From positions 64,650 through 96,649 of the forward strand of contig JACPWU010000020.1 in NCBI GenBank assembly GCA_016196885.1: DNA of 32,000 bases, in the 5' to 3' direction. Below, in pieces: positions 9,299-31,872 of the stretch. Positions within the stretch are counted from its first letter, which is position 1. Each line of letters starts with the position of its first letter. The notes below the pieces were generated by a model. That model was not told the DNA's origin. It ran no database searches and saw only the letters and a list, made by a program, of their open reading frames with translations. Made by a program: the position numbers and the translations under genes. This DNA comes from Chlamydiota bacterium (GTDB lineage Bacteria; Auribacterota; JACPWU01).

Positions 9299-9412
9299 TG
9301 TCATCCCCGAGTGCTTTTGTCGGGGATCCAAGTATCCTGTCCAGATATTTCTAAGAAATGGATTCCCGCTTACCCCGCAGGGGCTATTTCGTTGAAACCT
9401 GCGGGAATGACA
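9299..9412. repeat. Double-hairpin palindromic repeat (GTCATCCCCGA... / ATTCCCGC... family), copy 1
   Basis: Outer TGTCAT/ATGACA. Hairpin 1 is ATCCCCGA (9303-9310) / TCGGGGAT (9320-9327). Hairpin 2 is ATTCCCGC (9362-9369) / GCGGGAAT (9401-9408). The first 30 nt match 31809-31839 at 28 of 30. Confidence 0.75.
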
Positions 9413-14202: not shown

Positions 14203-14838
14203 ATGAAACCGGGATCTCTCATTTTTAACATTATCTTTTATTTATTTCTTCTTCTACTTCTACAAGATCCCATCTATGCTGAAGACCTTTCTTTTCTAGG
14301 ACACGCCTTTATCGAATACAAACTGACGGGTAAAAATGAGGGGAGTGAAGAACTCTACATCAAGAATAATAAGATTCGCTCGATCACACGACTGAACACC
14401 TCTGTCCATACTTCTACCATTGTCATTGACCTCTTGTACATGATCGAGGGTTCCGACATCATCCTTGTCGATTTCAACCAACGAGAAGGGAGTAGAATCA
14501 AAAACAGCTTCGACAAATCCGTGAGTGAAATGACCGATGAAGAAAAGAGGATATTTAAAAGAGAAATTCTTACCGGACTTCCCAGGCAAAGTGAATTTGA
14601 AGACCTTGGACGTGAAACCATCCTGGGAAAGGACTGCCTCATCCTAAAGGCTCAGCTTAAAGAAATAACCATGAAAATATGGATTTGGAACGACCTCGTT
14701 CTAAAAAGCGAAATGACAGGCTCCATCACATTCAGCAAAGTGGCCACTCAGATAGACACCTCATCGCCCATTTCAAAAGATTTGTTTCAAGTTCCATTGG
14801 ATATTAAAATAAAAGAAAAAATGACAAATAACCCATAA
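14203..14838 (+). CDS. Hypothetical secreted protein
   Basis: MKPGSLIFNIIFYLFLLLLLQDPIYA signal peptide beginning at the ATG at 14203, which is internal to track ORF 14143. No family recognised. Divergent from the TPR gene. Confidence 0.55.
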   Translation: MKPGSLIFNIIFYLFLLLLLQDPIYAEDLSFLGHAFIEYKLTGKNEGSEELYIKNNKIRSITRLNTSVHTSTIVIDLLYMIEGSDIILVDFNQREGSRIKNSFDKSVSEMTDEEKRIFKREILTGLPRQSEFEDLGRETILGKDCLILKAQLKEITMKIWIWNDLVLKSEMTGSITFSKVATQIDTSSPISKDLFQVPLDIKIKEKMTNNP

Positions 14839-14940
14839 CAAATGTCAAATGAACGACCCATGACTCAATGTCCAATAGGTGATTGGGAAATGGGTGAATT
14901 GGGAATTAATTTGTCATTTGTTATGGGTCATTGGACATTG
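14831..14940. terminator. Interleaved inverted repeats at a convergent gene junction, possibly a bidirectional terminator
   Basis: ACCCATAACAAATGTCAA (14831-14848) versus TTGTCATTTGTTATGGGT (14911-14928), with one mismatch. CAATGTCCAAT (14866-14876) versus ATTGGACATTG (14930-14940), perfect. The arms overlap the last codons of both convergent genes. Confidence 0.45.
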
Positions 14941-17385
14941 TTTTAAACATCTTCCTGTCACAGACTCCCTCACCTTCTCTATCTCTTCTAGTGTCCCCTG
15001 AGCTACAATTTCTCCGCCCCGCTCACCTCCTCCTGGACCCATATCTATTATATAATCCGCACATCGAATCACCTCCAAATGATGTTCAATCACCAAAACG
15101 CTATTTCCTTCATCTCTCAATCGAAAGAAGATTTTAAGCAGCCGTTCAACATCCACAAGATGGAGCCCCTGGGTCGGCTCGTCAAAAACGTAAAGGGTTC
15201 CTTGCAAATGGCGCCGGGCAAGGTCCATCGCCAATTTCATTCGTTGAACTTCTCCGGAAGAAAGAGTCCTCGAACGCTGTCCCAACTGAAGATAACCCAC
15301 GCCTACCTCTTTCAAGGATTTAAGAGACAAGAGAATGGAAGGAATGTTTTCAAAAAAGTGAAGGGCCTCCTCCACCGTCATTCCTAAAACTTCATGGATG
15401 TTTCGACCCTTGTATTTAATTTCAAGGGTCTCGCGATTGTAACAGCTCCCCCGACAGGCCTCGCAAGAAATCTCGAGATCCGCCATCCACATCATCTCCA
15501 CTTTCTCAAGACCCTCTCCCCGACAAGACTCACACCTTCCACCTTTCACGTTAAAGCTGAAGCGATTCTCACTGTATCCCCTCAAGCGGCTCTCAGGAAC
15601 ACGAGCAAAGAGTTCGCGAATCTGATCAAAGATCCCTACATAGGTTGACACATTCGAACGAGAATTTTTCCCCATGCCCTGATCATCCACAACCACCAAC
15701 CTCTTTACCTTGCCCATCCCTTCAAGCTCATCCCAACTTGGATTCAAAATTTTTTCCTTAGACAAATGCGACTTCAGGGCTCGGCACAAAACATCATTCA
15801 CAAGAGAAGTTTTTCCAGAACCTGAAACACCCGTCACACAGCAAAAAACCTCCAATGGAATTTTTACATCTATCTTTTTCAAATTATTTGCCCTGGCCCC
15901 TCGTATTTCAAGACAGAAAGGTGACGCCAGACGAGTCGCCTTCCCCAAGGAAATTCGAAGCTCTCCCCTCAACAATCGTCCGGTCAAAGAAGAGGACTTC
16001 TGTAACTGTGCCTTCTTACCAAAGGCGGTCAGCTCGCCGCCTCCAGAGCCCGCTCTAGGTCCCATCTCCACAATCACATCTGCCGCCTGAATCACCGCTC
16101 CATCATGCTCAATCACCAAGACCGTATTGCCCTCGTCCCTCATCTGGTATAACAACTTCACAAGACGAGGAACCTCACTGGAGTGAAGCCCTAAGGTAGG
16201 TTCATCCAAAATATACAAAACGCCCACCAGGCCCGACGCAATTTGACTTGCGATCCTCAAACGCTGCAACTCTCCTCGAGAAAGAGAAGACAAACTTCGA
16301 TTCAAAGAGAGCTCTCCCAATCCTGTGTTCATTAAAAGCTTTAGCTTCGGGAGGATTTTGGATGAAACCTCCTTTTGAACCTCCTCCCTTTTACGATCGC
16401 CAAATTTTAATCGTTCCAAGAAAAGGGATATCTTGGAAAGACGAAGTGAACACAATTCAAAAATAGAATAAGGCCCTACTTTGACACTCAAAGATTCTTT
16501 TCTCAGTCGGGCCCCTTGACAAGCCGTGCAAACATTCGAGGTATCTTTTAGAAACCCCCTCCCGTGGCAATGAGGACAGGCCCCTTGAGGACTGTTGAAT
16601 GAAAAAAAAGCGGGCGATAATTCTCCATAATGTAAACCACAGGCCAAACACCGATACTCCGTACAATAAGTACCATCGAGCCCTGGCTTTTCATCCGAAA
16701 AAATCTGAACAACCCCCTCCCCATATCGCAATGCCAATTCGATAGAATCTGCAATTCTGGTTCTCGCCTCCTCCTTCACCACCAGACGATCCACGACAAT
16801 CTGAACTTCTCTTGCCTCAAACAAAGACAAACCCTCAAGCTCCGTCAGCTTGCCATCGATGCGAACCCGGACAAAACCCTCTTTTTGTAAAGTTTCCAAA
16901 GACATCTCTTCTGGCTTTGGAGCCAGAATCATGAGAGAGGTTTGTGGCGGTAGCTCCATCACCTTTGCAATGATTTGCTGGGGGGTAAAACGTTCCAGTC
17001 GTTCACCACATTGATAACAAAAAAGATCTCCCGCCTTTGAAAAGAGAAGTCTTAAAAAATCTGCTATTTCTGTTAAAGTTCCAACTGTGGATCTCAAAGA
17101 AACGGAGGTTTGATGAGATGTCAAAAGAAAGGCGGGTGGCAATCCTTCAATAAAATCTAGACCAGATCGCGGTAAATCCAAGAAACGAAAGCCAAATTCA
17201 CTTCCCAAAAATTCTACATATCTTCGCTTGGCCTCTCGATAGATGGTATCTATCACCAAGGAGGACTTCCCAGAACCACTCAAACCTGTGACCACAATCA
17301 ACTGATGATGAGGCAAATCAAGGGTCACATTTTTAAGATAATGTTCCCTGGCTCCTCGAATGGAAATCTTAGGTTGGATCATCAT
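14914..17385 (-). CDS. UvrA-like ABC ATPase (excinuclease subunit A paralogue or variant), 823 aa
   Basis: Two ABC modules: GLSGSGKSS and GVSGSGKTS Walker A, ILDEPT and VFDEPT Walker B. Zinc modules: CYQCG, CLACG...CPHCHGRG, CESCRGEG...CEACRG. Signature motifs read LSRGE and LSSGE. About 115 aa shorter than the canonical enzyme. Confidence 0.88.
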   Translation of the reverse strand: MMIQPKISIRGAREHYLKNVTLDLPHHQLIVVTGLSGSGKSSLVIDTIYREAKRRYVEFLGSEFGFRFLDLPRSGLDFIEGLPPAFLLTSHQTSVSLRSTVGTLTEIADFLRLLFSKAGDLFCYQCGERLERFTPQQIIAKVMELPPQTSLMILAPKPEEMSLETLQKEGFVRVRIDGKLTELEGLSLFEAREVQIVVDRLVVKEEARTRIADSIELALRYGEGVVQIFSDEKPGLDGTYCTEYRCLACGLHYGELSPAFFSFNSPQGACPHCHGRGFLKDTSNVCTACQGARLRKESLSVKVGPYSIFELCSLRLSKISLFLERLKFGDRKREEVQKEVSSKILPKLKLLMNTGLGELSLNRSLSSLSRGELQRLRIASQIASGLVGVLYILDEPTLGLHSSEVPRLVKLLYQMRDEGNTVLVIEHDGAVIQAADVIVEMGPRAGSGGGELTAFGKKAQLQKSSSLTGRLLRGELRISLGKATRLASPFCLEIRGARANNLKKIDVKIPLEVFCCVTGVSGSGKTSLVNDVLCRALKSHLSKEKILNPSWDELEGMGKVKRLVVVDDQGMGKNSRSNVSTYVGIFDQIRELFARVPESRLRGYSENRFSFNVKGGRCESCRGEGLEKVEMMWMADLEISCEACRGSCYNRETLEIKYKGRNIHEVLGMTVEEALHFFENIPSILLSLKSLKEVGVGYLQLGQRSRTLSSGEVQRMKLAMDLARRHLQGTLYVFDEPTQGLHLVDVERLLKIFFRLRDEGNSVLVIEHHLEVIRCADYIIDMGPGGGERGGEIVAQGTLEEIEKVRESVTGRCLKQCPMTHNK

Positions 17386-17391
17386 TTAAAG

Positions 17392-17472
17392 GTCGCTCGT
17401 CGTCCGTATTTCGTCATCCGTTTATAAAAAACCCTCACTTTTACGAAACACGAACAACGGACGACGAACGAC
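17392..17472 (-). repeat. Long imperfect hairpin with CGT/ACG-rich arms (family member 3), between smc stop and the uvrA-like start
   Basis: Arm 17392-17421 (gtcgctcgtcgtccgtatttcgtcatccgt) pairs with arm 17443-17472 (acgaaacacgaacaacggacgacgaacgac). The outer 17 bp match at 16 of 17. The loop is an A/T-rich 21 nt. Confidence 0.65.
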
Positions 17473-24077: not shown

Positions 24078-24968
24078 TCAAAGATTTTTGATCGTCATCT
24101 GAGCCGCCTTCAAGGTATTTTTTAAGAGCATGGCAACCGTCATAAGTCCAATCCCTCCGGGGACCGGTGTAATGGCCGCGGCCTTTTTTGAAACCCCATC
24201 GAAATCTACATCCCCGACCAGGCGATATCCTTTTTCTGAAAGTGGATCTGAAACGCGATTGATCCCCACATCCACCACCACCACTCCCTCTCTCACAGCT
24301 TCGGCCTGGATGAATTGAGGTTTTCCTATGGCAGCCACAATGATTTCGGCCATTTTAAGATGCGCCTTTAAATTCTTTGTCCCCGAATGACATAAAGTCA
24401 CCGTGGCATTGGTCCCAAAATCTTTTTGAGCAAAAAGGGCGGCCACCGGTTTTCCCACAATGTTTGAACGGCCCACCACAACCACGTGGCGACCTTCCAT
24501 CGGAATTTGATACCGTTTCAGAATTTCAATCACCCCCAAAGGCGTGCACGGAACAAATTGAGGAATTCCCAAAAGCAGCCTGCCCATGTTAAAAGGGTGA
24601 AAGCCATCCACATCTTTTTCAGGGAGGATGGTCTCGTAGATGAGAGATTCCTGAATGTGAGGCGGCAGGGGATGTTGGACCAAGATGCCGTGAATATCGG
24701 GGCGCTGATTTAATTTTTGGATGCAGTCTAAAAGTTCAGTCTCTTGAGTTTGAAAAGGAAGACGTATCTCTTCCGATAAAAAACCCACCTCTTGGCAGGC
24801 CTTGGCCTTACTGCGCACATACACCTTTGAAGCTGGATCCTCCCCCACCAAAAGAACGGCCAAGCCCGGCTGAAGATTCCTAGAGCGCTTCAGTTCTTCA
24901 GTCTGGCGAGCGACCTCTTCCCGAACCCTCTGGGAAATTATTTTGCCATCGAGCAGTGTAAAACTCAT
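24078..24968 (-). CDS. folD: Bifunctional methylenetetrahydrofolate dehydrogenase/cyclohydrolase
   Basis: The LLVGEDPASKVYVRSK, VVVGRSNIVGKP and ITPVPGGIGLMTVAMLL motifs. GGGAG SD. Confidence 0.95.
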   Translation of the reverse strand: MSFTLLDGKIISQRVREEVARQTEELKRSRNLQPGLAVLLVGEDPASKVYVRSKAKACQEVGFLSEEIRLPFQTQETELLDCIQKLNQRPDIHGILVQHPLPPHIQESLIYETILPEKDVDGFHPFNMGRLLLGIPQFVPCTPLGVIEILKRYQIPMEGRHVVVVGRSNIVGKPVAALFAQKDFGTNATVTLCHSGTKNLKAHLKMAEIIVAAIGKPQFIQAEAVREGVVVVDVGINRVSDPLSEKGYRLVGDVDFDGVSKKAAAITPVPGGIGLMTVAMLLKNTLKAAQMTIKNL

Positions 24969-25029
24969 CTATCTCTCCCAAAAGCTGAAGTGTACCATAT
25001 TTTGGAAGGGTTCAAAATAGGAAGTGAAA

Positions 25030-25332
25030 CCCCAAGGACAGAGATAGAAAATGAGAACTCAAGAGCGACAGCTTGGCCCAGATGGACTTGAAGAAAACGT
25101 AGGCACACTCGCGACCGAGTTCGGGTACCCGCTTGCGGGTGAACGAGGAAGTGGTTGGAGCCCGTCAGGCGGAAACCATAGGGTACGTCGTTTCCTAAGG
25201 AAAAGAAACATCTACTAGCGCAGTCGGCCCTTTTTCTGCCTCAGGCAGCGGGCCTCCTTTACTGGCGTTTCTGAAAGTCCAGATGGGCCAAGATGTTGCG
25301 TCGAATTCCATTTTCTATCTCTGTCCTTGGGG
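25030..25332. repeat. 303-nt highly structured element closed by a perfect 24-bp inverted repeat; either MITE-like or a large ncRNA
   Basis: CCCCAAGGACAGAGATAGAAAATG (25030-25053) is the exact reverse complement of 25309-25332. A second tier pairs TTGGCCC..GGACTT with AAGTCC..GGGCCAA. The interior contains the 25112-25179 motif plus GTTTC..GAAAC and GGCCC..CTGCC-TCA-GGCAG..GGGCC hairpins. Confidence 0.7.
25112..25179 (+). ncRNA. Candidate structured RNA motif, copy 1; strand tentative
   Basis: CGACCGAGTTCGGGTACCCGCTTGCGGGTGAACGAGGAAGTGGTTGGAGCCCGTCAGGCGGAAACCAT. It is near-identical to 29301-29369 except in the two hairpin loops and 4 other positions. Plus-sense reading gives a G-U pair and a G-A/A-G internal loop. 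Confidence 0.4.
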
Positions 25333-25336
25333 AAAC

Positions 25337-26287
25337 CTAATCCACCGACACACGATCAATTTTAGTGAGTTCGATCACAGGGATGCGGCGATAGACTTGC
25401 GAAACTTGAACACCTGACACCTTCACCGCTTGATGAAGATAACGTTCCATTTGAAAAGAATTTGCCTCAATCATGCAAACCAGATGCTGGTCTTGAATCA
25501 ATTTATACCGCTTGGATCTTTGACTTAGCCCACCTGTCATTTCGAGATAGCCCTCAAAGCTTTTTTCTGAACCGTCCCCAGCCCCACCCGCTTGGAGAAC
25601 AGGTTCAGCCTTTACAGCAGATTCGCTAGACAAGGCCTCAATCGGCTGCGCAACCACAGGAACACTCGCAAGAGCGACCTCTTCCTCAGGAATCTTGGGT
25701 TTAAATTCCTCTTTTTCCAATTCCTCTGCCTCATGAAGAAGCATCTCTTTTCTGGCCTCTTTCAATTTAAGCGGGTCCGTGTCGCCCAAGGTCTTCGTCC
25801 CTTCTCCATCAGGCAAGGCATAAGTCACTAAATCTTTGCGAATCCAACCGCGGGCATTTGGAGGAGGTTTAATTTTAAGCCATTCCCCTTCTTCACCCAC
25901 CTTTTGAATTGCATCCCCTCTCATCAGTTGACAAATCACGAAACTATCTACGTTCGGCCGAAGACGGACATTCAGAGTGCTGGTTGTCACTTGATCATGC
26001 TCAACATATTTTCCGTTCACCCAAAAAAAGACATCCTCAGGGCAAGCGATTTCATACCACCCGTAGACTTCTTTATAAACTAAAACGGAGGTATCCCGGC
26101 TCAACTTCACTAAAATTTCATAATCTAAATTCCCCCCGGCTCGAACATTCACATGGTCCTCGCTCACCTTGCCTAGGAAAGGAAAGGTGACTTCAGGATT
26201 TTGGAGAGATGTTTCCTCACAGAAAATCGCAGGAGAAAAATTTCCACATAAAAGAAAAATGAGCAGGGTTCCTAAAGACAGCTTCAT
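25337..26287 (-). CDS. Secreted protein with two bacterial SH3 (SH3b) domains
   Basis: Signal peptide MKLSLGTLLIFLLCGNF from the ATG at 26287. Two SH3_3-like segments: VNVRAGGNLDYEILVKL...GWYEI and LNVRLRPNVDSFVICQL...EWLKI. Confidence 0.7.
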   Translation of the reverse strand: MKLSLGTLLIFLLCGNFSPAIFCEETSLQNPEVTFPFLGKVSEDHVNVRAGGNLDYEILVKLSRDTSVLVYKEVYGWYEIACPEDVFFWVNGKYVEHDQVTTSTLNVRLRPNVDSFVICQLMRGDAIQKVGEEGEWLKIKPPPNARGWIRKDLVTYALPDGEGTKTLGDTDPLKLKEARKEMLLHEAEELEKEEFKPKIPEEEVALASVPVVAQPIEALSSESAVKAEPVLQAGGAGDGSEKSFEGYLEMTGGLSQRSKRYKLIQDQHLVCMIEANSFQMERYLHQAVKVSGVQVSQVYRRIPVIELTKIDRVSVD

Positions 26288-26301
26288 AACGCTCTCATTA
26301 T

Positions 26302-26451
26302 TTAAGGCTTGGTTTTGGGAAGACCCGTGCCGCGATCTCCATCCTTCCACTTCTTTCTCTTCTTCAATAATTCAATGCGCTCATAGCGTTTCAAAACATT
26401 TCTTTTGGAAGCAATTTTACCGCTCACTTTTAAACTAGAATGTTGTGACAT
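26302..26451 (-). CDS. Small basic protein, 49 aa, below the ORF-track cutoff
   Basis: Manual translation gives MSQHSSLKVSGKIASKRNVLKRYERIELLKKRKKWKDGDRGTGLPKTKP. GGAGGAAAGGG SD directly upstream. From memory it resembles the small basic protein family annotated in PVC-group bacteria (RNVLKRxERIExLKK...W..GD...GLPK). Confidence 0.6.
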   Translation of the reverse strand: MSQHSSLKVSGKIASKRNVLKRYERIELLKKRKKWKDGDRGTGLPKTKP

Positions 26452-29245: not shown

Positions 29246-29291
29246 AACCCCCCATAGCCTCTGGATTATCTTAAGAGCTTCCCACCGCCAT

Positions 29292-29378
29292 CCCCCCCTT
29301 ACGACCGAGTCCGGGTACCCGCCGCAGCGGGTGGACGAGGAAGTGGTTGTAGCCAAGAGGCGAAAACCATTAAGGGGG
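29292..29378 (+). ncRNA. Candidate structured RNA motif, copy 2, with a 9-bp closing stem; strand tentative
   Basis: CCCCCCTTA (29292-29300) pairs with TAAGGGGGG (29370-29378). Hairpin ACCCGC-CGCA-GCGGGT. Hairpin GTGGTT-GTA-GCC-AAGA-GGC-GAA-AACCAT. See 25112-25179 for the paralogue. Confidence 0.45.
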
Positions 29379-29405
29379 GAGAGGGGGGTTACTTCCTTAA
29401 AAACC

Positions 29406-29829: not shown

Positions 29830-29883
29830 GTCATCCCAAGGACCCAGCCCTTTGTTAACAAAGGGCTGGGTCCTCGGGATGAC
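29830..29883 (-). terminator. 54-nt near-perfect palindrome (GTCATCCC...GGGATGAC), terminator-like, after the L,D-transpeptidase gene
   Basis: GTCATCCCAAGGACCCAGCCCTTTGTT / AACAAAGGGCTGGGTCCTCGGGATGAC, with one mismatch that becomes a G-U pair only in minus-sense RNA. A U-rich run (GUUGUUUUU) follows about 9 nt downstream on the minus strand. Confidence 0.6.
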
Positions 29884-30743: not shown

Positions 30744-31238
30744 CTAAGACGCCTGACACGACCCCGTCTTCTCTCCCTCTTCTTTGCAACTTCTCGAGAA
30801 AAGGAGTGTGTCCAAAGAAAAGCATCCCGGCCCCGCAAAAACAAGACCCCATGAAAGGCCGATCAAAGCCAAACTGTATTCAATCCCATGCCCGACATTG
30901 GGCGTATTAAACCAATTCATAAAAAAACCATTGGCCCAATTCACTTTATAAATTGCTACCGCCATCACCGAGGCAAGGCCCAAAGCCCCTAAACGGGTCA
31001 GAAGTCCCAACAAAACAGAAACACCGCCTAAAAGCTCTGTAAATGCAGCAGCATAGGCCCAAGGAACGGGAATTCCCAGATTTTGATTTATAAAAGCAAC
31101 TGTTTGCGAAAGGCCATGCCCCCCCCACAAACCAAAAACCTTTTGACATCCATGGGCAATAAAAATCATTCCCAGGGCCAACCTCATCCATAAAAGCCCC
31201 CATTGAGCCAAATTACAACGCCAAGATGATTTTTCCAT
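30744..31238 (-). CDS. DoxX-family membrane protein
   Basis: RLALGMIFIAHGCQKVFG and four TM segments typical of DoxX. Confidence 0.8.
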   Translation of the reverse strand: MEKSSWRCNLAQWGLLWMRLALGMIFIAHGCQKVFGLWGGHGLSQTVAFINQNLGIPVPWAYAAAFTELLGGVSVLLGLLTRLGALGLASVMAVAIYKVNWANGFFMNWFNTPNVGHGIEYSLALIGLSWGLVFAGPGCFSLDTLLFSRSCKEEGEKTGSCQAS

Positions 31239-31270
31239 GAGTTCCCCTCCCTTTTTTTATCTTCTATGTA

Positions 31271-31279
31271 TGATACAAT
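31271..31279 (+). promoter_or_regulatory. Possible extended -10 element (TGATACAAT) in the divergent doxX / PDZ-gene spacer
   Basis: A TGnTACAAT match lies 14 nt upstream of the ATG at 31294. No good -35 and no SD. The divergent gene arrangement requires a promoter somewhere in 31239-31293. Confidence 0.25.
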
Positions 31280-31293
31280 AGTTTTTCAAAAAT

Positions 31294-31797
31294 ATGAAAA
31301 TTTTAAAAACACTTTTTTTAATGGGTTTTTTCCTCCCTTGCTTCAACATCCCTGTCGAAGGAGCAAAACGAGTTCTTCCAAAAGCACGCATTGAAAAAAT
31401 AGGTCCTCATCTTTGGAAGGTAGAGGAAAATGCATTTTTAGGCGAGGAAGATGCCTCTACTTTATTGGGAGAAGATGTTGTGGAACCCTCTTTTCTCACC
31501 GATGACACTCAAGACATCAAACTGATTCAAATTCATCAAAACAATCTTCTTCATCAAGCTGGCTTTCAATCAGGAGATTGCATCATTGCCGTCAATGGAA
31601 ATACCCTAGAAAGCGCTTGGAGCACCCTTTCCCTTCTCAAAGAATTGAGAAATACAAATTCAACCGTAACAGTTGAGTTTGCTCGGAATCGAAAAAGAAT
31701 GATTCATCAATATTTCTTTGAGGGGAATTCTCTGCAGTCTTTAACCCTTATTTTTATCCAAGAATTAACAGACTATCTCAATCCTTTTTCTACTTAG
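31294..31797 (+). CDS. Secreted protein with a PDZ-like (GspC-type) domain
   Basis: Signal peptide MKILKTLFLMGFFLPCF. PDZ-like core LLHQAGFQSGDCIIAVNGNTLES...VTVEFARN. Confidence 0.6.
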   Translation: MKILKTLFLMGFFLPCFNIPVEGAKRVLPKARIEKIGPHLWKVEENAFLGEEDASTLLGEDVVEPSFLTDDTQDIKLIQIHQNNLLHQAGFQSGDCIIAVNGNTLESAWSTLSLLKELRNTNSTVTVEFARNRKRMIHQYFFEGNSLQSLTLIFIQELTDYLNPFST

Positions 31798-31808: not shown

Positions 31809-31872
31809 GTCATCCCCGAATGCTTTAGTCGGGGATCCATTCTGGATTCCCGCCTACAACCTGCGGGAATGT
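31809..31872. repeat. Double-hairpin palindromic repeat, copy 2 (compact form)
   Basis: GTCATCCCCGAATGCTTTAGTCGGGGATCCA, then TGGATTCCCGC-CTACAAC-CTGCGGGAATG. Same order and orientation as 9299-9412, but without that copy's ~29-nt spacer and enlarged second loop. Confidence 0.75.

Follow-up and report, generated by a model that had tools for sequence, protein, structure and literature searches.

The 32,000-nt window of contig JACPWU010000020.1 (Chlamydiota bacterium, assembly GCA_016196885.1) contains, between an SH3b-domain gene and folD, a 303-nt unit (pos. 25030–25332) with strong self-complementarity. An inverted-repeat search bore out the outline of this unit given in a preliminary description of the DNA: the arms of its terminal inverted repeat (TIR), 25030–25053 and 25309–25332, are complementary at 24 of 24 positions and enclose 255 nt. 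The genes flanking the element are all on the minus strand. The stop codon of the SH3b gene (25337–25339, minus strand) lies 4 nt from the element, and the ATG (24968–24966) of folD (24078–24968, minus strand) lies 61 nt from it, so that both distances described earlier are correct on gene coordinates; the true start of the SH3b gene is the ATG at 26287, where a signal peptide is predicted. Inside the TIR, the second long stem tier that had been noticed before was found at 25065–25096/25268–25299, with 81% complementarity. The interior of both tiers is made up of four hairpins, where at least three had been counted; the conserved 70-nt motif, however, which had been taken for one of them, spans two (25111–25152 and 25153–25177).

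25027–25029, unstranded: AAA flank, repeated at 25333–25335; a possible 3-bp target duplication, weak
25030–25053, unstranded: left TIR arm, CCCCAAGGACAGAGATAGAAAATG, 24/24 against the right arm; an imperfect helix continues to 25060
25065–25099, unstranded: left subterminal (tier-2) arm, kept in the homologous copy at locus L035; GA dinucleotides at 25081–82 and 25090–91
25110–25179, plus strand: copy A of the 70-nt module, hairpins I and II; covariance model 85.8 bits, E = 4e-20
25181–25213, unstranded: small internal hairpin, from folding; no homologue found
25215–25265, unstranded: G+C-rich internal hairpin GGCCC...CUGCC UCA GGCAG...GGGCC, from folding; no homologue found
25266–25299, unstranded: right subterminal (tier-2) arm; window 25268–25310 is 86% identical to L035 2718–2759
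25309–25332, unstranded: right TIR arm, from the inverted-repeat search; Logan contig L033 ends 29 nt inside

Folding of both strands, as had been suggested, gave energies far below those of shuffled sequences for each (plus, −150.3 kcal/mol, z = −8.6; minus, −144.7 kcal/mol, z = −10.9), and the element is richer in G+C than its surroundings. Its longest open reading frames (ORFs) encode 55 and 50 aa; their exact sequences are not in the protein collection, and the 55-aa ORF had no homologue in the homologue search. A scan for sigma-70-like promoters returned none at, inside or flanking the element on either strand. The element had also been considered as a terminator of the upstream operon; the U-rich minus-sense tail UUUCACUUCCUAUUUU is indeed present after the closing helix, but it lacks a terminator consensus, as the intrinsic terminator scan found none at either element end and the tail (UUUCACUUCC...) opens with three U only. 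A proposed GAAA target duplication shrank to AAA, the right-hand G being the last base of the inverted repeat. Comparison with Rfam 15, which includes ZTP and THF riboswitches, 6S RNA, ribozyme classes and HEARO, revealed no match at gathering score anywhere in the window, and relaxing the limit to E = 10 brought up nothing but noise on the element, on the second copy of the motif (copy B), and on loci L020 and L035; ARAGORN found no tRNA or tmRNA.

The SH3b–folD spacer in relatives

Five syntenic relatives (L002, L003, L004–6, L035/36 and L037; L numbers denote the loci and contigs fetched for comparison) have in common with the window the gene order LysM-YkuD, DUF488, small lipoprotein, CutA1, HEAT/thioredoxin, 320–334-aa protein, 49-aa protein, SH3b, folD. 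The closest sampled relatives of the source are distant, with a FolD identity of only 61–69%. The SH3b–folD spacers have the following lengths.

L002 (GCA_016178055.1): −4 nt, the genes overlap
L003: 70 nt
L004–6: 47 nt
L035/36 (GCA_964640155.1): 52 nt
L037: 297 nt, unrelated in sequence, lacking the motif and any long inverted repeat
Window: 368 nt = 303 + 65

Subtraction of the 303-nt unit leaves 65 nt in the window, inside the range of the relatives, and the element was not found at this site in any of the five; relative to these spacers the unit is an insertion. Since the syntenic relatives lack it, the element is not a conserved RNA gene of the SH3b–folD locus. The preliminary description had recommended looking for such empty sites, and it had noted that orthologous loci carrying the same covarying element would weaken its MITE (miniature inverted-repeat transposable element) reading; no such loci were seen, the spacers of the relatives being devoid of the element.

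Two other features of this region were observed. The spacer of L037 (9704–10000) has grown to 297 nt through unrelated sequence that contains several small hairpins, and a Logan contig from the organism of L037 (L038) breaks 41 nt upstream of folD; the SH3b–folD spacer seems to be a recurrent insertion site. Just upstream of the SH3b gene, positions 26288–26437 of the window hold a conserved 49-aa basic ORF, MSQHSSLKVSGKIASKRNVLKRYERIELLKKRKKWKDGDRGTGLPKTKP, which is called as a 49–50-aa gene in all relatives and has no Pfam match.

A homologous foldback at a second locus

A blastn search of the arms against all fetched loci revealed a homologue of about 175 nt in GCA_964640155.1 (L035 2614–2786), located in the 290 nt that separate a divergent pair of PDZ and DoxX genes, 16 nt upstream of DoxX. 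Its right arm is 86% identical to that of the window over 43 nt (window 25268–25310) and its left arm 69% identical over 78 nt, its terminal arms (22 nt) are 86% complementary, and the arms of the foldback have the block GCTTGGNNNAGATNGACTTGAAGAAAACGTAG conserved. The corresponding site in the window is empty.

31239–31293, unstranded: empty DoxX/PDZ spacer, 55 nt, counterpart of the 290-nt spacer of L035

This gap, between the DoxX gene (30744–31238, minus strand) and the PDZ gene (31294–31797, plus strand), contains no element. Occupancy is thus reciprocal, each genome being empty at the site where the other carries the foldback. Because presence and absence are reciprocal at two loci, the comparison indicates that the element is probably mobile and non-autonomous, not a vertically inherited RNA gene. 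Together with the empty sites in the relatives and the homologue at another locus, this favors the first of the two readings offered in the preliminary description, a MITE-like insertion with a structured module. We consider it highly probable that the 303-bp unit belongs to a mobile foldback family.

Comparison of the two copies revealed that the outer helix is maintained in pairing and the subterminal arms in sequence. With pairs counted outward from the shared anchors TGAGAAC...GAATTCCA, 10 of the 22 pairs of the outer helix are changed on both sides and are Watson-Crick in both copies; the remaining ones are identical (8), changed on one side (1, G-C to G·U) or unpaired in L035 (3). The outer arms are only 50% identical (11/22 nt) with their pairing kept, whereas the subterminal arms retain 80–86% identity, mismatches included. 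On the plus strand, the mismatches in the window arms comprise two tandem G·A/A·G (25081–82 and 25090–91), two single G·A or A·G, two G·U and one C·A, and the L035 copy, too, carries both GA dinucleotides on each of its arms. Since non-canonical loops are conserved beside freely covarying helices, these data point to selection on a folded single strand. Paired changes in the TIRs would also be expected if both TIRs co-evolve symmetrically with a diverging transposase. An alternative origin, in which a core element had been inserted into an unrelated palindrome, was dropped, as the outer arms of both copies are homologous at the identity and pairing given above. The second reading of the preliminary description, a stand-alone non-coding RNA (ncRNA) with the inverted repeat as its P1 helix, therefore survives in part: a vertically inherited gene of the locus is not supported, but the pattern of variation, with the outer helix covarying and the G·A loops kept, argues for selection on the fold.

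The 70-nt module

The 70-nt motif of the element (copy A) has a second copy in the window, which is also an insertion.

29300–29370, plus strand: copy B of the 70-nt module, in the CCCCCCCTTA/TAAGGGGGG stem; covariance model 89.9 bits, E = 3e-21

The spacer between the DUF488 and small lipoprotein genes that holds copy B measures about 209 nt in the window, and the same genes in L003, L004, L035 and L037 are 15 nt apart or less, or overlap by a few nucleotides. The stem of copy B is itself nested in an outer TAACCCCCC/GGGGGGTTA stem, with flanks at 29246–29391. Looking up the DUF488 protein, with a view to a contig break at copy B, returned no record.

A search of one-genome-per-species contigs with a pattern of the motif core gave 22 matches, five of which are real: L008 (Pseudomonadota), L013 and L016 (Elusimicrobia), L015 (Omnitrophota) and L020 (Deltaproteobacteria), all in metagenome-assembled genomes (MAGs). 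The other 17 were rejected as coding coincidences, since GTGGACGAGGAAGTGGTT encodes VDEEVV. A relaxed two-block pattern gave four matches in JGI metagenomes, one of them false; L031 and L032 were new, and L029 shows the L016 locus again, extended further upstream. No motif was found in viral contigs. The evidence on the module comprises eight full copies and a truncated one (L015, at a contig end), and about 45 of their nucleotides are near-invariant over four phyla or more, an apparent sequence conservation that is biased by the search patterns. With a covariance model built from the eight copies, each of them scored 71–95 bits (E = 1e-16 to 1e-22), and neither the window nor some 340 kb of other loci yielded a further intact copy.

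Hairpin I (25111–25152) is irregular, and consists of a G·U/G-C foot, a GA/AA loop, a CC:GG step, a tandem G·A and a GNCC:GGAC helix, which is GUUC:GAAC in the window copy, a compensatory change; above these lie a GGGN bulge and a stem based on CCC:GGG with a variable tip of 4 to 22 nt. Hairpin II (25153–25177) has a 4-bp outer stem (GGUU:AACC, CCCC:GGGG or ACCC:GGGU), a symmetric 3x3 GNA/GRA internal loop, an inner stem of 3–4 bp (GCC:GGC or GGC:GCC) and loops that are mostly GNRA. Throughout the module alignment, 97% of the paired cells hold standard pairs and 7 of the 13 pairs are changed on both sides; these values were reached by no shuffle or by 1 of 500, and all slid controls were far lower. 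The plus strand of the module is the more stable in 8 of 8 copies, by 2.5–11 kcal/mol.

Analysis of the genomic context of the module revealed no shared setting.

L008: sense, between two genes
L031 12374–12448: sense, in frame, in the linker of a sigma-54 activator between AAA-lid and HTH_8
L013 4303–4377: antisense, inside a T2SSB-like ORF
L029: antisense, overlapping the 3' end of the panE ORF
L020: following a tRNA gene
Both window copies: antisense to the flanking genes

The neighbors are ordinary housekeeping genes, none of them common to the copies, and the orientation is inconsistent. A cis-regulatory role of the module is ruled out because there is neither a shared neighbor nor a consistent orientation, and the distribution agrees with a structured unit that is selfish or stands alone. 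All homologues of the sigma-54 activator have a hypervariable linker, so that no clean empty allele is available for L031.

The module is absent from the L035 foldback, whose apex consists of a short hairpin in place of about 155 additional nucleotides of the window copy, and because a relative's foldback exists without it, we regard the module as a separable passenger. Placement at an apex was observed in three cases: copy B sits in the CCCCCCCTTA/TAAGGGGGG stem, and L015 has the same hairpin with a T6 loop only; copy A sits at the tip of the foldback, and the tip in L035 has no module; and the module of L020 is flanked by a perfect 12-bp inverted repeat. The window copy's apex has gained about 155 nt that include the two-hairpin module, itself probably a horizontally spreading unit; a second, smaller structured unit would then have colonized the apex of the foldback, and the module may tend to target hairpin tips.

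Additional observations were made on individual copies. On the Omnitrophota MAG contig L015, positions 957–1000 form the C-rich/G-rich hairpin with the T6 loop and no module, and 1259–1313 form a filled copy that, at the contig end, has the beginning of a further unit (GUGGUUG|CGACCGAG) in place of hairpin II, a hint of tandem units. The Elusimicrobia locus contains a degenerate second module (L029 2161–2228, 15 bits) about 100 nt upstream of the intact copy. GC skew on the plus strand of the window is negative over 1–32000 (about −0.2) and its genes are mostly on the minus strand, and for these reasons the better-folding strand of both module copies is the C-rich strand, antisense to genes. 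Among known structures, a k-turn was rejected for hairpin II, whose loop is symmetric 3x3 without a 3-nt bulge; attC was rejected in the absence of R'/R'' boxes; and look-alikes of ZTP, hammerhead, hairpin ribozyme, RNase P and SRP were rejected, with few words in common and no model match. Literature searches on the module core sequence yielded primers only, and reports of new ribozymes or motifs contained nothing matching.

Proposed mobilization of the foldback and competing explanations

In its full form, the interpretation that we favor is that of a non-autonomous foldback of the MITE or REPIN kind, recognized as a folded strand and carrying the 70-nt passenger module at its apex, and we hold this to be moderately probable. 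The element was inserted into the short SH3b–folD spacer of a core operon. Because it encodes no protein, it must rely on an enzyme encoded elsewhere, by which it would be moved in trans. Since the subterminal arms and G·A loops keep their sequence and the outer 22–24-bp helix keeps only its pairing, recognition may act on the folded single strand, as has been proposed for REPINs and HUH-type transposases, and not through sequence-specific duplex TIRs. In the operon transcript, which reads the element in the minus sense, a stem of about 60 bp would be formed; we would expect RNase III to cut this stem, or read-through to be impeded by it, which would uncouple folD from the upstream genes.

Prokaryotic MITEs have been described as undergoing RNase III cleavage at their TIRs and as inserting into one another, and Rickettsia palindromic elements (RPEs) occur in frame (PMC10969869). 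The 303-nt unit is similar to Correia/NEMIS, ERIC, Chunjie and QMITE (PMC10969869) in that it is shorter than 500 bp, non-coding and intergenic, has TIRs within 4–30 bp and forms a long hairpin when transcribed; it also resembles MITEs in its insertion polymorphism between related genomes and in the effect expected on co-transcribed genes, comparable to RNase III cleavage at Correia TIRs. In contrast to classical MITE families, in which the TIR, as the sequence bound by the transposase, is the best conserved part, the TIR sequence is least conserved here (50% identity, pairing kept) and the subterminal arms are best conserved. The unit also differs from MITEs in being G+C-richer than its surroundings instead of AT-rich, in having a direct repeat of 3 nt only and in that no parent insertion sequence (IS) or transposase was found for it, in a comparison that rests on two copies.

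In REPIN hairpins, conserved blocks are accompanied by compensatory changes elsewhere, and an action of HUH transposases on single-stranded DNA has been proposed (PMC3116915). Like the REPINs that are linked to RAYT (HUH/Y1) transposases (PMC3116915), the foldback is non-autonomous, hairpin-forming mobile DNA with conserved blocks on both arms, whose remaining parts need only the capacity to form a hairpin and undergo compensatory changes, with single-stranded recognition proposed. REPINs, however, are doublets of about 100 bp made of short REP palindromes, with hundreds of copies next to a RAYT gene, whereas the unit here is 175–303 bp long, its arms are not recognizable REP palindromes, and only 32 kb of the genome was in view.

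Further comparisons concern the module. BOX, RUP and SPRITE (PMC10969869) and the IS elements that target REP sequences (PMC1525189) show that repeats nest and that palindromes serve as targets, as may be the case for the module at three apices; no sequence relationship exists, and the targeting of hairpin tips proposed here is drawn from three cases. RPEs (PMC10969869) are small, palindromic and selfish and can lie in frame inside genes, as the module does in L031 (in L013 it also lies within an ORF), but they are about 150 bp long and occur in Rickettsia only, whereas the module is 70 nt long and is found in at least four phyla. Retron ncRNAs (msr-msd, with a1/a2 repeats) differ from the element, which has the SH3b gene and folD as neighbors, with no reverse transcriptase domain in the window.

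Further copies of the element were sought in several searches. The 24-mer of the TIR had no further match in the window with up to 3 mismatches allowed, shuffles also giving 0; an 18-mer had a single match in viral contigs, inside a coding region, which was put down to chance; and blastn of the element against plasmids and phages revealed no similarity. Two Logan contigs from run SRR12113387, with proteins identical to those of the window, end 31 nt (left) and 29 nt (right) inside the element, and the interior 25061–25303 is not covered by them. The assembly used k = 31 (k−1 = 30), and contigs of that sample are generally short. Ends at about k−1 are as expected where unique flanks enter a sequence that is non-unique in the sample; this is only suggestive of additional copies of the element sequence there.

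Besides the inverted pattern of conservation relative to MITEs, several observations weigh against a mobile foldback. The breaks in the Logan contigs could also stem from heterogeneity between alleles or from a strong hairpin being poorly covered. The family consists of two copies, one per genome, with no further copy in the window or in the approximately 340 kb of fetched loci, and a 20-mer of the TIR had 0 matches in one-genome-per-species contigs, a set without the source genome. No gene for a transposase, RAYT, HUH domain, reverse transcriptase or recombinase is present in the window, whose genes are dnaE, guaA, guaB, tonB/exbB, uvrA, smc and similar ones. The empty sites are defined by spacer length and not by base-exact junctions, the relatives being distant, and the direct repeat AAA lies in an A-rich spacer where it could be due to chance. 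Finally, in the L035 copy it is the minus strand that gives the slightly better fold, and the plus bias of the window copy is thus not general.

The explanation that fares best after the mobile foldback, with which it overlaps, is a horizontally acquired gene for a structured ncRNA, with transcription antisense to the operon, from the plus strand; the inverted repeat would form its P1, the G·A-rich arms and the 70-nt module would act as functional RNA domains, and mobility would be a secondary matter. We consider it rather unlikely. Helices that covary while the sequence of the internal loops is conserved are the classical signature of a functional fold, the mismatches in the arms are purine-purine or G·U on the plus strand, where the minus strand would give pyrimidine-pyrimidine or C·A, and the module folds better on the plus strand in all eight copies, with mostly GNRA loops in hairpin II. 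However, neither promoter-like nor terminator-like sites flank the element on either strand, no Rfam family matches it, and a perfect 24-bp duplex without G·U is unusual for an RNA helix and would be a substrate of RNase III. The L035 copy, moreover, has no plus-strand preference, and the placement differs between the copies, antisense between operon genes in the window and 16 nt upstream of DoxX in L035.

The self-cleaving ribozyme classes twister, pistol and hatchet are small structured RNAs in scattered genomic contexts. The module is similar to them in its size of about 70 nt, in having covarying helices of variable length around invariant unpaired or non-canonical nucleotides, and in its mobile contexts without a fixed gene; it matches no Rfam ribozyme and has no nameable cleavage site, and the resemblance is in style only. 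A bolder and doubtful possibility is that the module, perhaps with the G·A-rich arms, forms a new functional RNA class, acting as a self-cleaving ribozyme or bound by a partner that is universally conserved, and spreads across phyla by insertion into hairpin tips; the 303-nt unit would then be a DNA-encoded RNA element similar to viroids or retrozymes and not a passive MITE.

ZTP and THF riboswitches control folate genes, which, together with the position directly upstream of folD and the U-rich stretch after the minus-sense helix, counts in favor of a cis-acting part of the operon that regulates folD as a terminator or attenuator, an RNA processing site or a folate/purine riboswitch. We regard such a role as very unlikely: no Rfam riboswitch matched even at E up to 10, the terminator consensus is missing, the element is absent from 5 of 5 syntenic relatives, the L035 homologue and motif copy B adjoin unrelated genes, and the module occurs in mixed orientation, sense in L008 and L031 and antisense in both window copies, L029 and L013.

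It is scarcely credible that the element is an invertible DNA switch (inverton), in which a recombinase would flip the 255-bp segment to control folD: perfect inverted repeats around a segment upstream of a gene would suit it, and the interior missing from the Logan contigs could indicate heterogeneity, but a k = 31 graph would branch right after the 24-nt repeat and the contigs run 31 and 29 nt in, beyond the position at which the orientations would diverge, the window contains no recombinase gene and the element no promoter-like site, and the L035 homologue is at another locus. Equally improbable is a foldback chimera from the assembler or library preparation, to which the lack of coverage of 25061–25303 in the independent Logan contigs would correspond, since both flank/repeat junctions are reproduced in those contigs by a different assembler, the arms are homologous to a foldback in another genome from another project, and several other assemblies contain homologues of the interior module.

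A MITE-like insertion in an uncultivated bacterium is routine by itself. A mobile foldback family that keeps its fold and G·A loops over its terminal sequence, however, points to mobilization via a folded single strand, in a host from a poorly known lineage related to groundwater MAGs of the Omnitrophota type. The 70-nt module, without an Rfam entry, is a testable candidate for a new class of structured RNA or single-stranded DNA, and also a candidate mobile unit smaller than any characterized transposon. At the locus, the insertion splits an otherwise tightly coupled SH3b–folD pair, and the element illustrates how such hairpins break short-read assemblies.

The window contains further repeats. 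A 54-nt palindrome without a spacer (29830–29883, 27-nt arms, 96% complementary) is located between the genes for YkuD and DUF488 and has CCCAAGGAC in common with the terminal repeat of the element; two hairpins, 9300–9330 and 31809–31839, both begin with GTCATCCC and are 94% identical to each other. The palindrome and the two hairpins look like a REP-like or terminator-like repeat family in the source genome. Two intergenic inverted repeats are located beside uvrA, at 14816–14943 (38-nt arms, 84% complementary) and 17392–17472 (30-nt arms, 80% complementary), one separating a TPR gene from uvrA, the other uvrA from smc.

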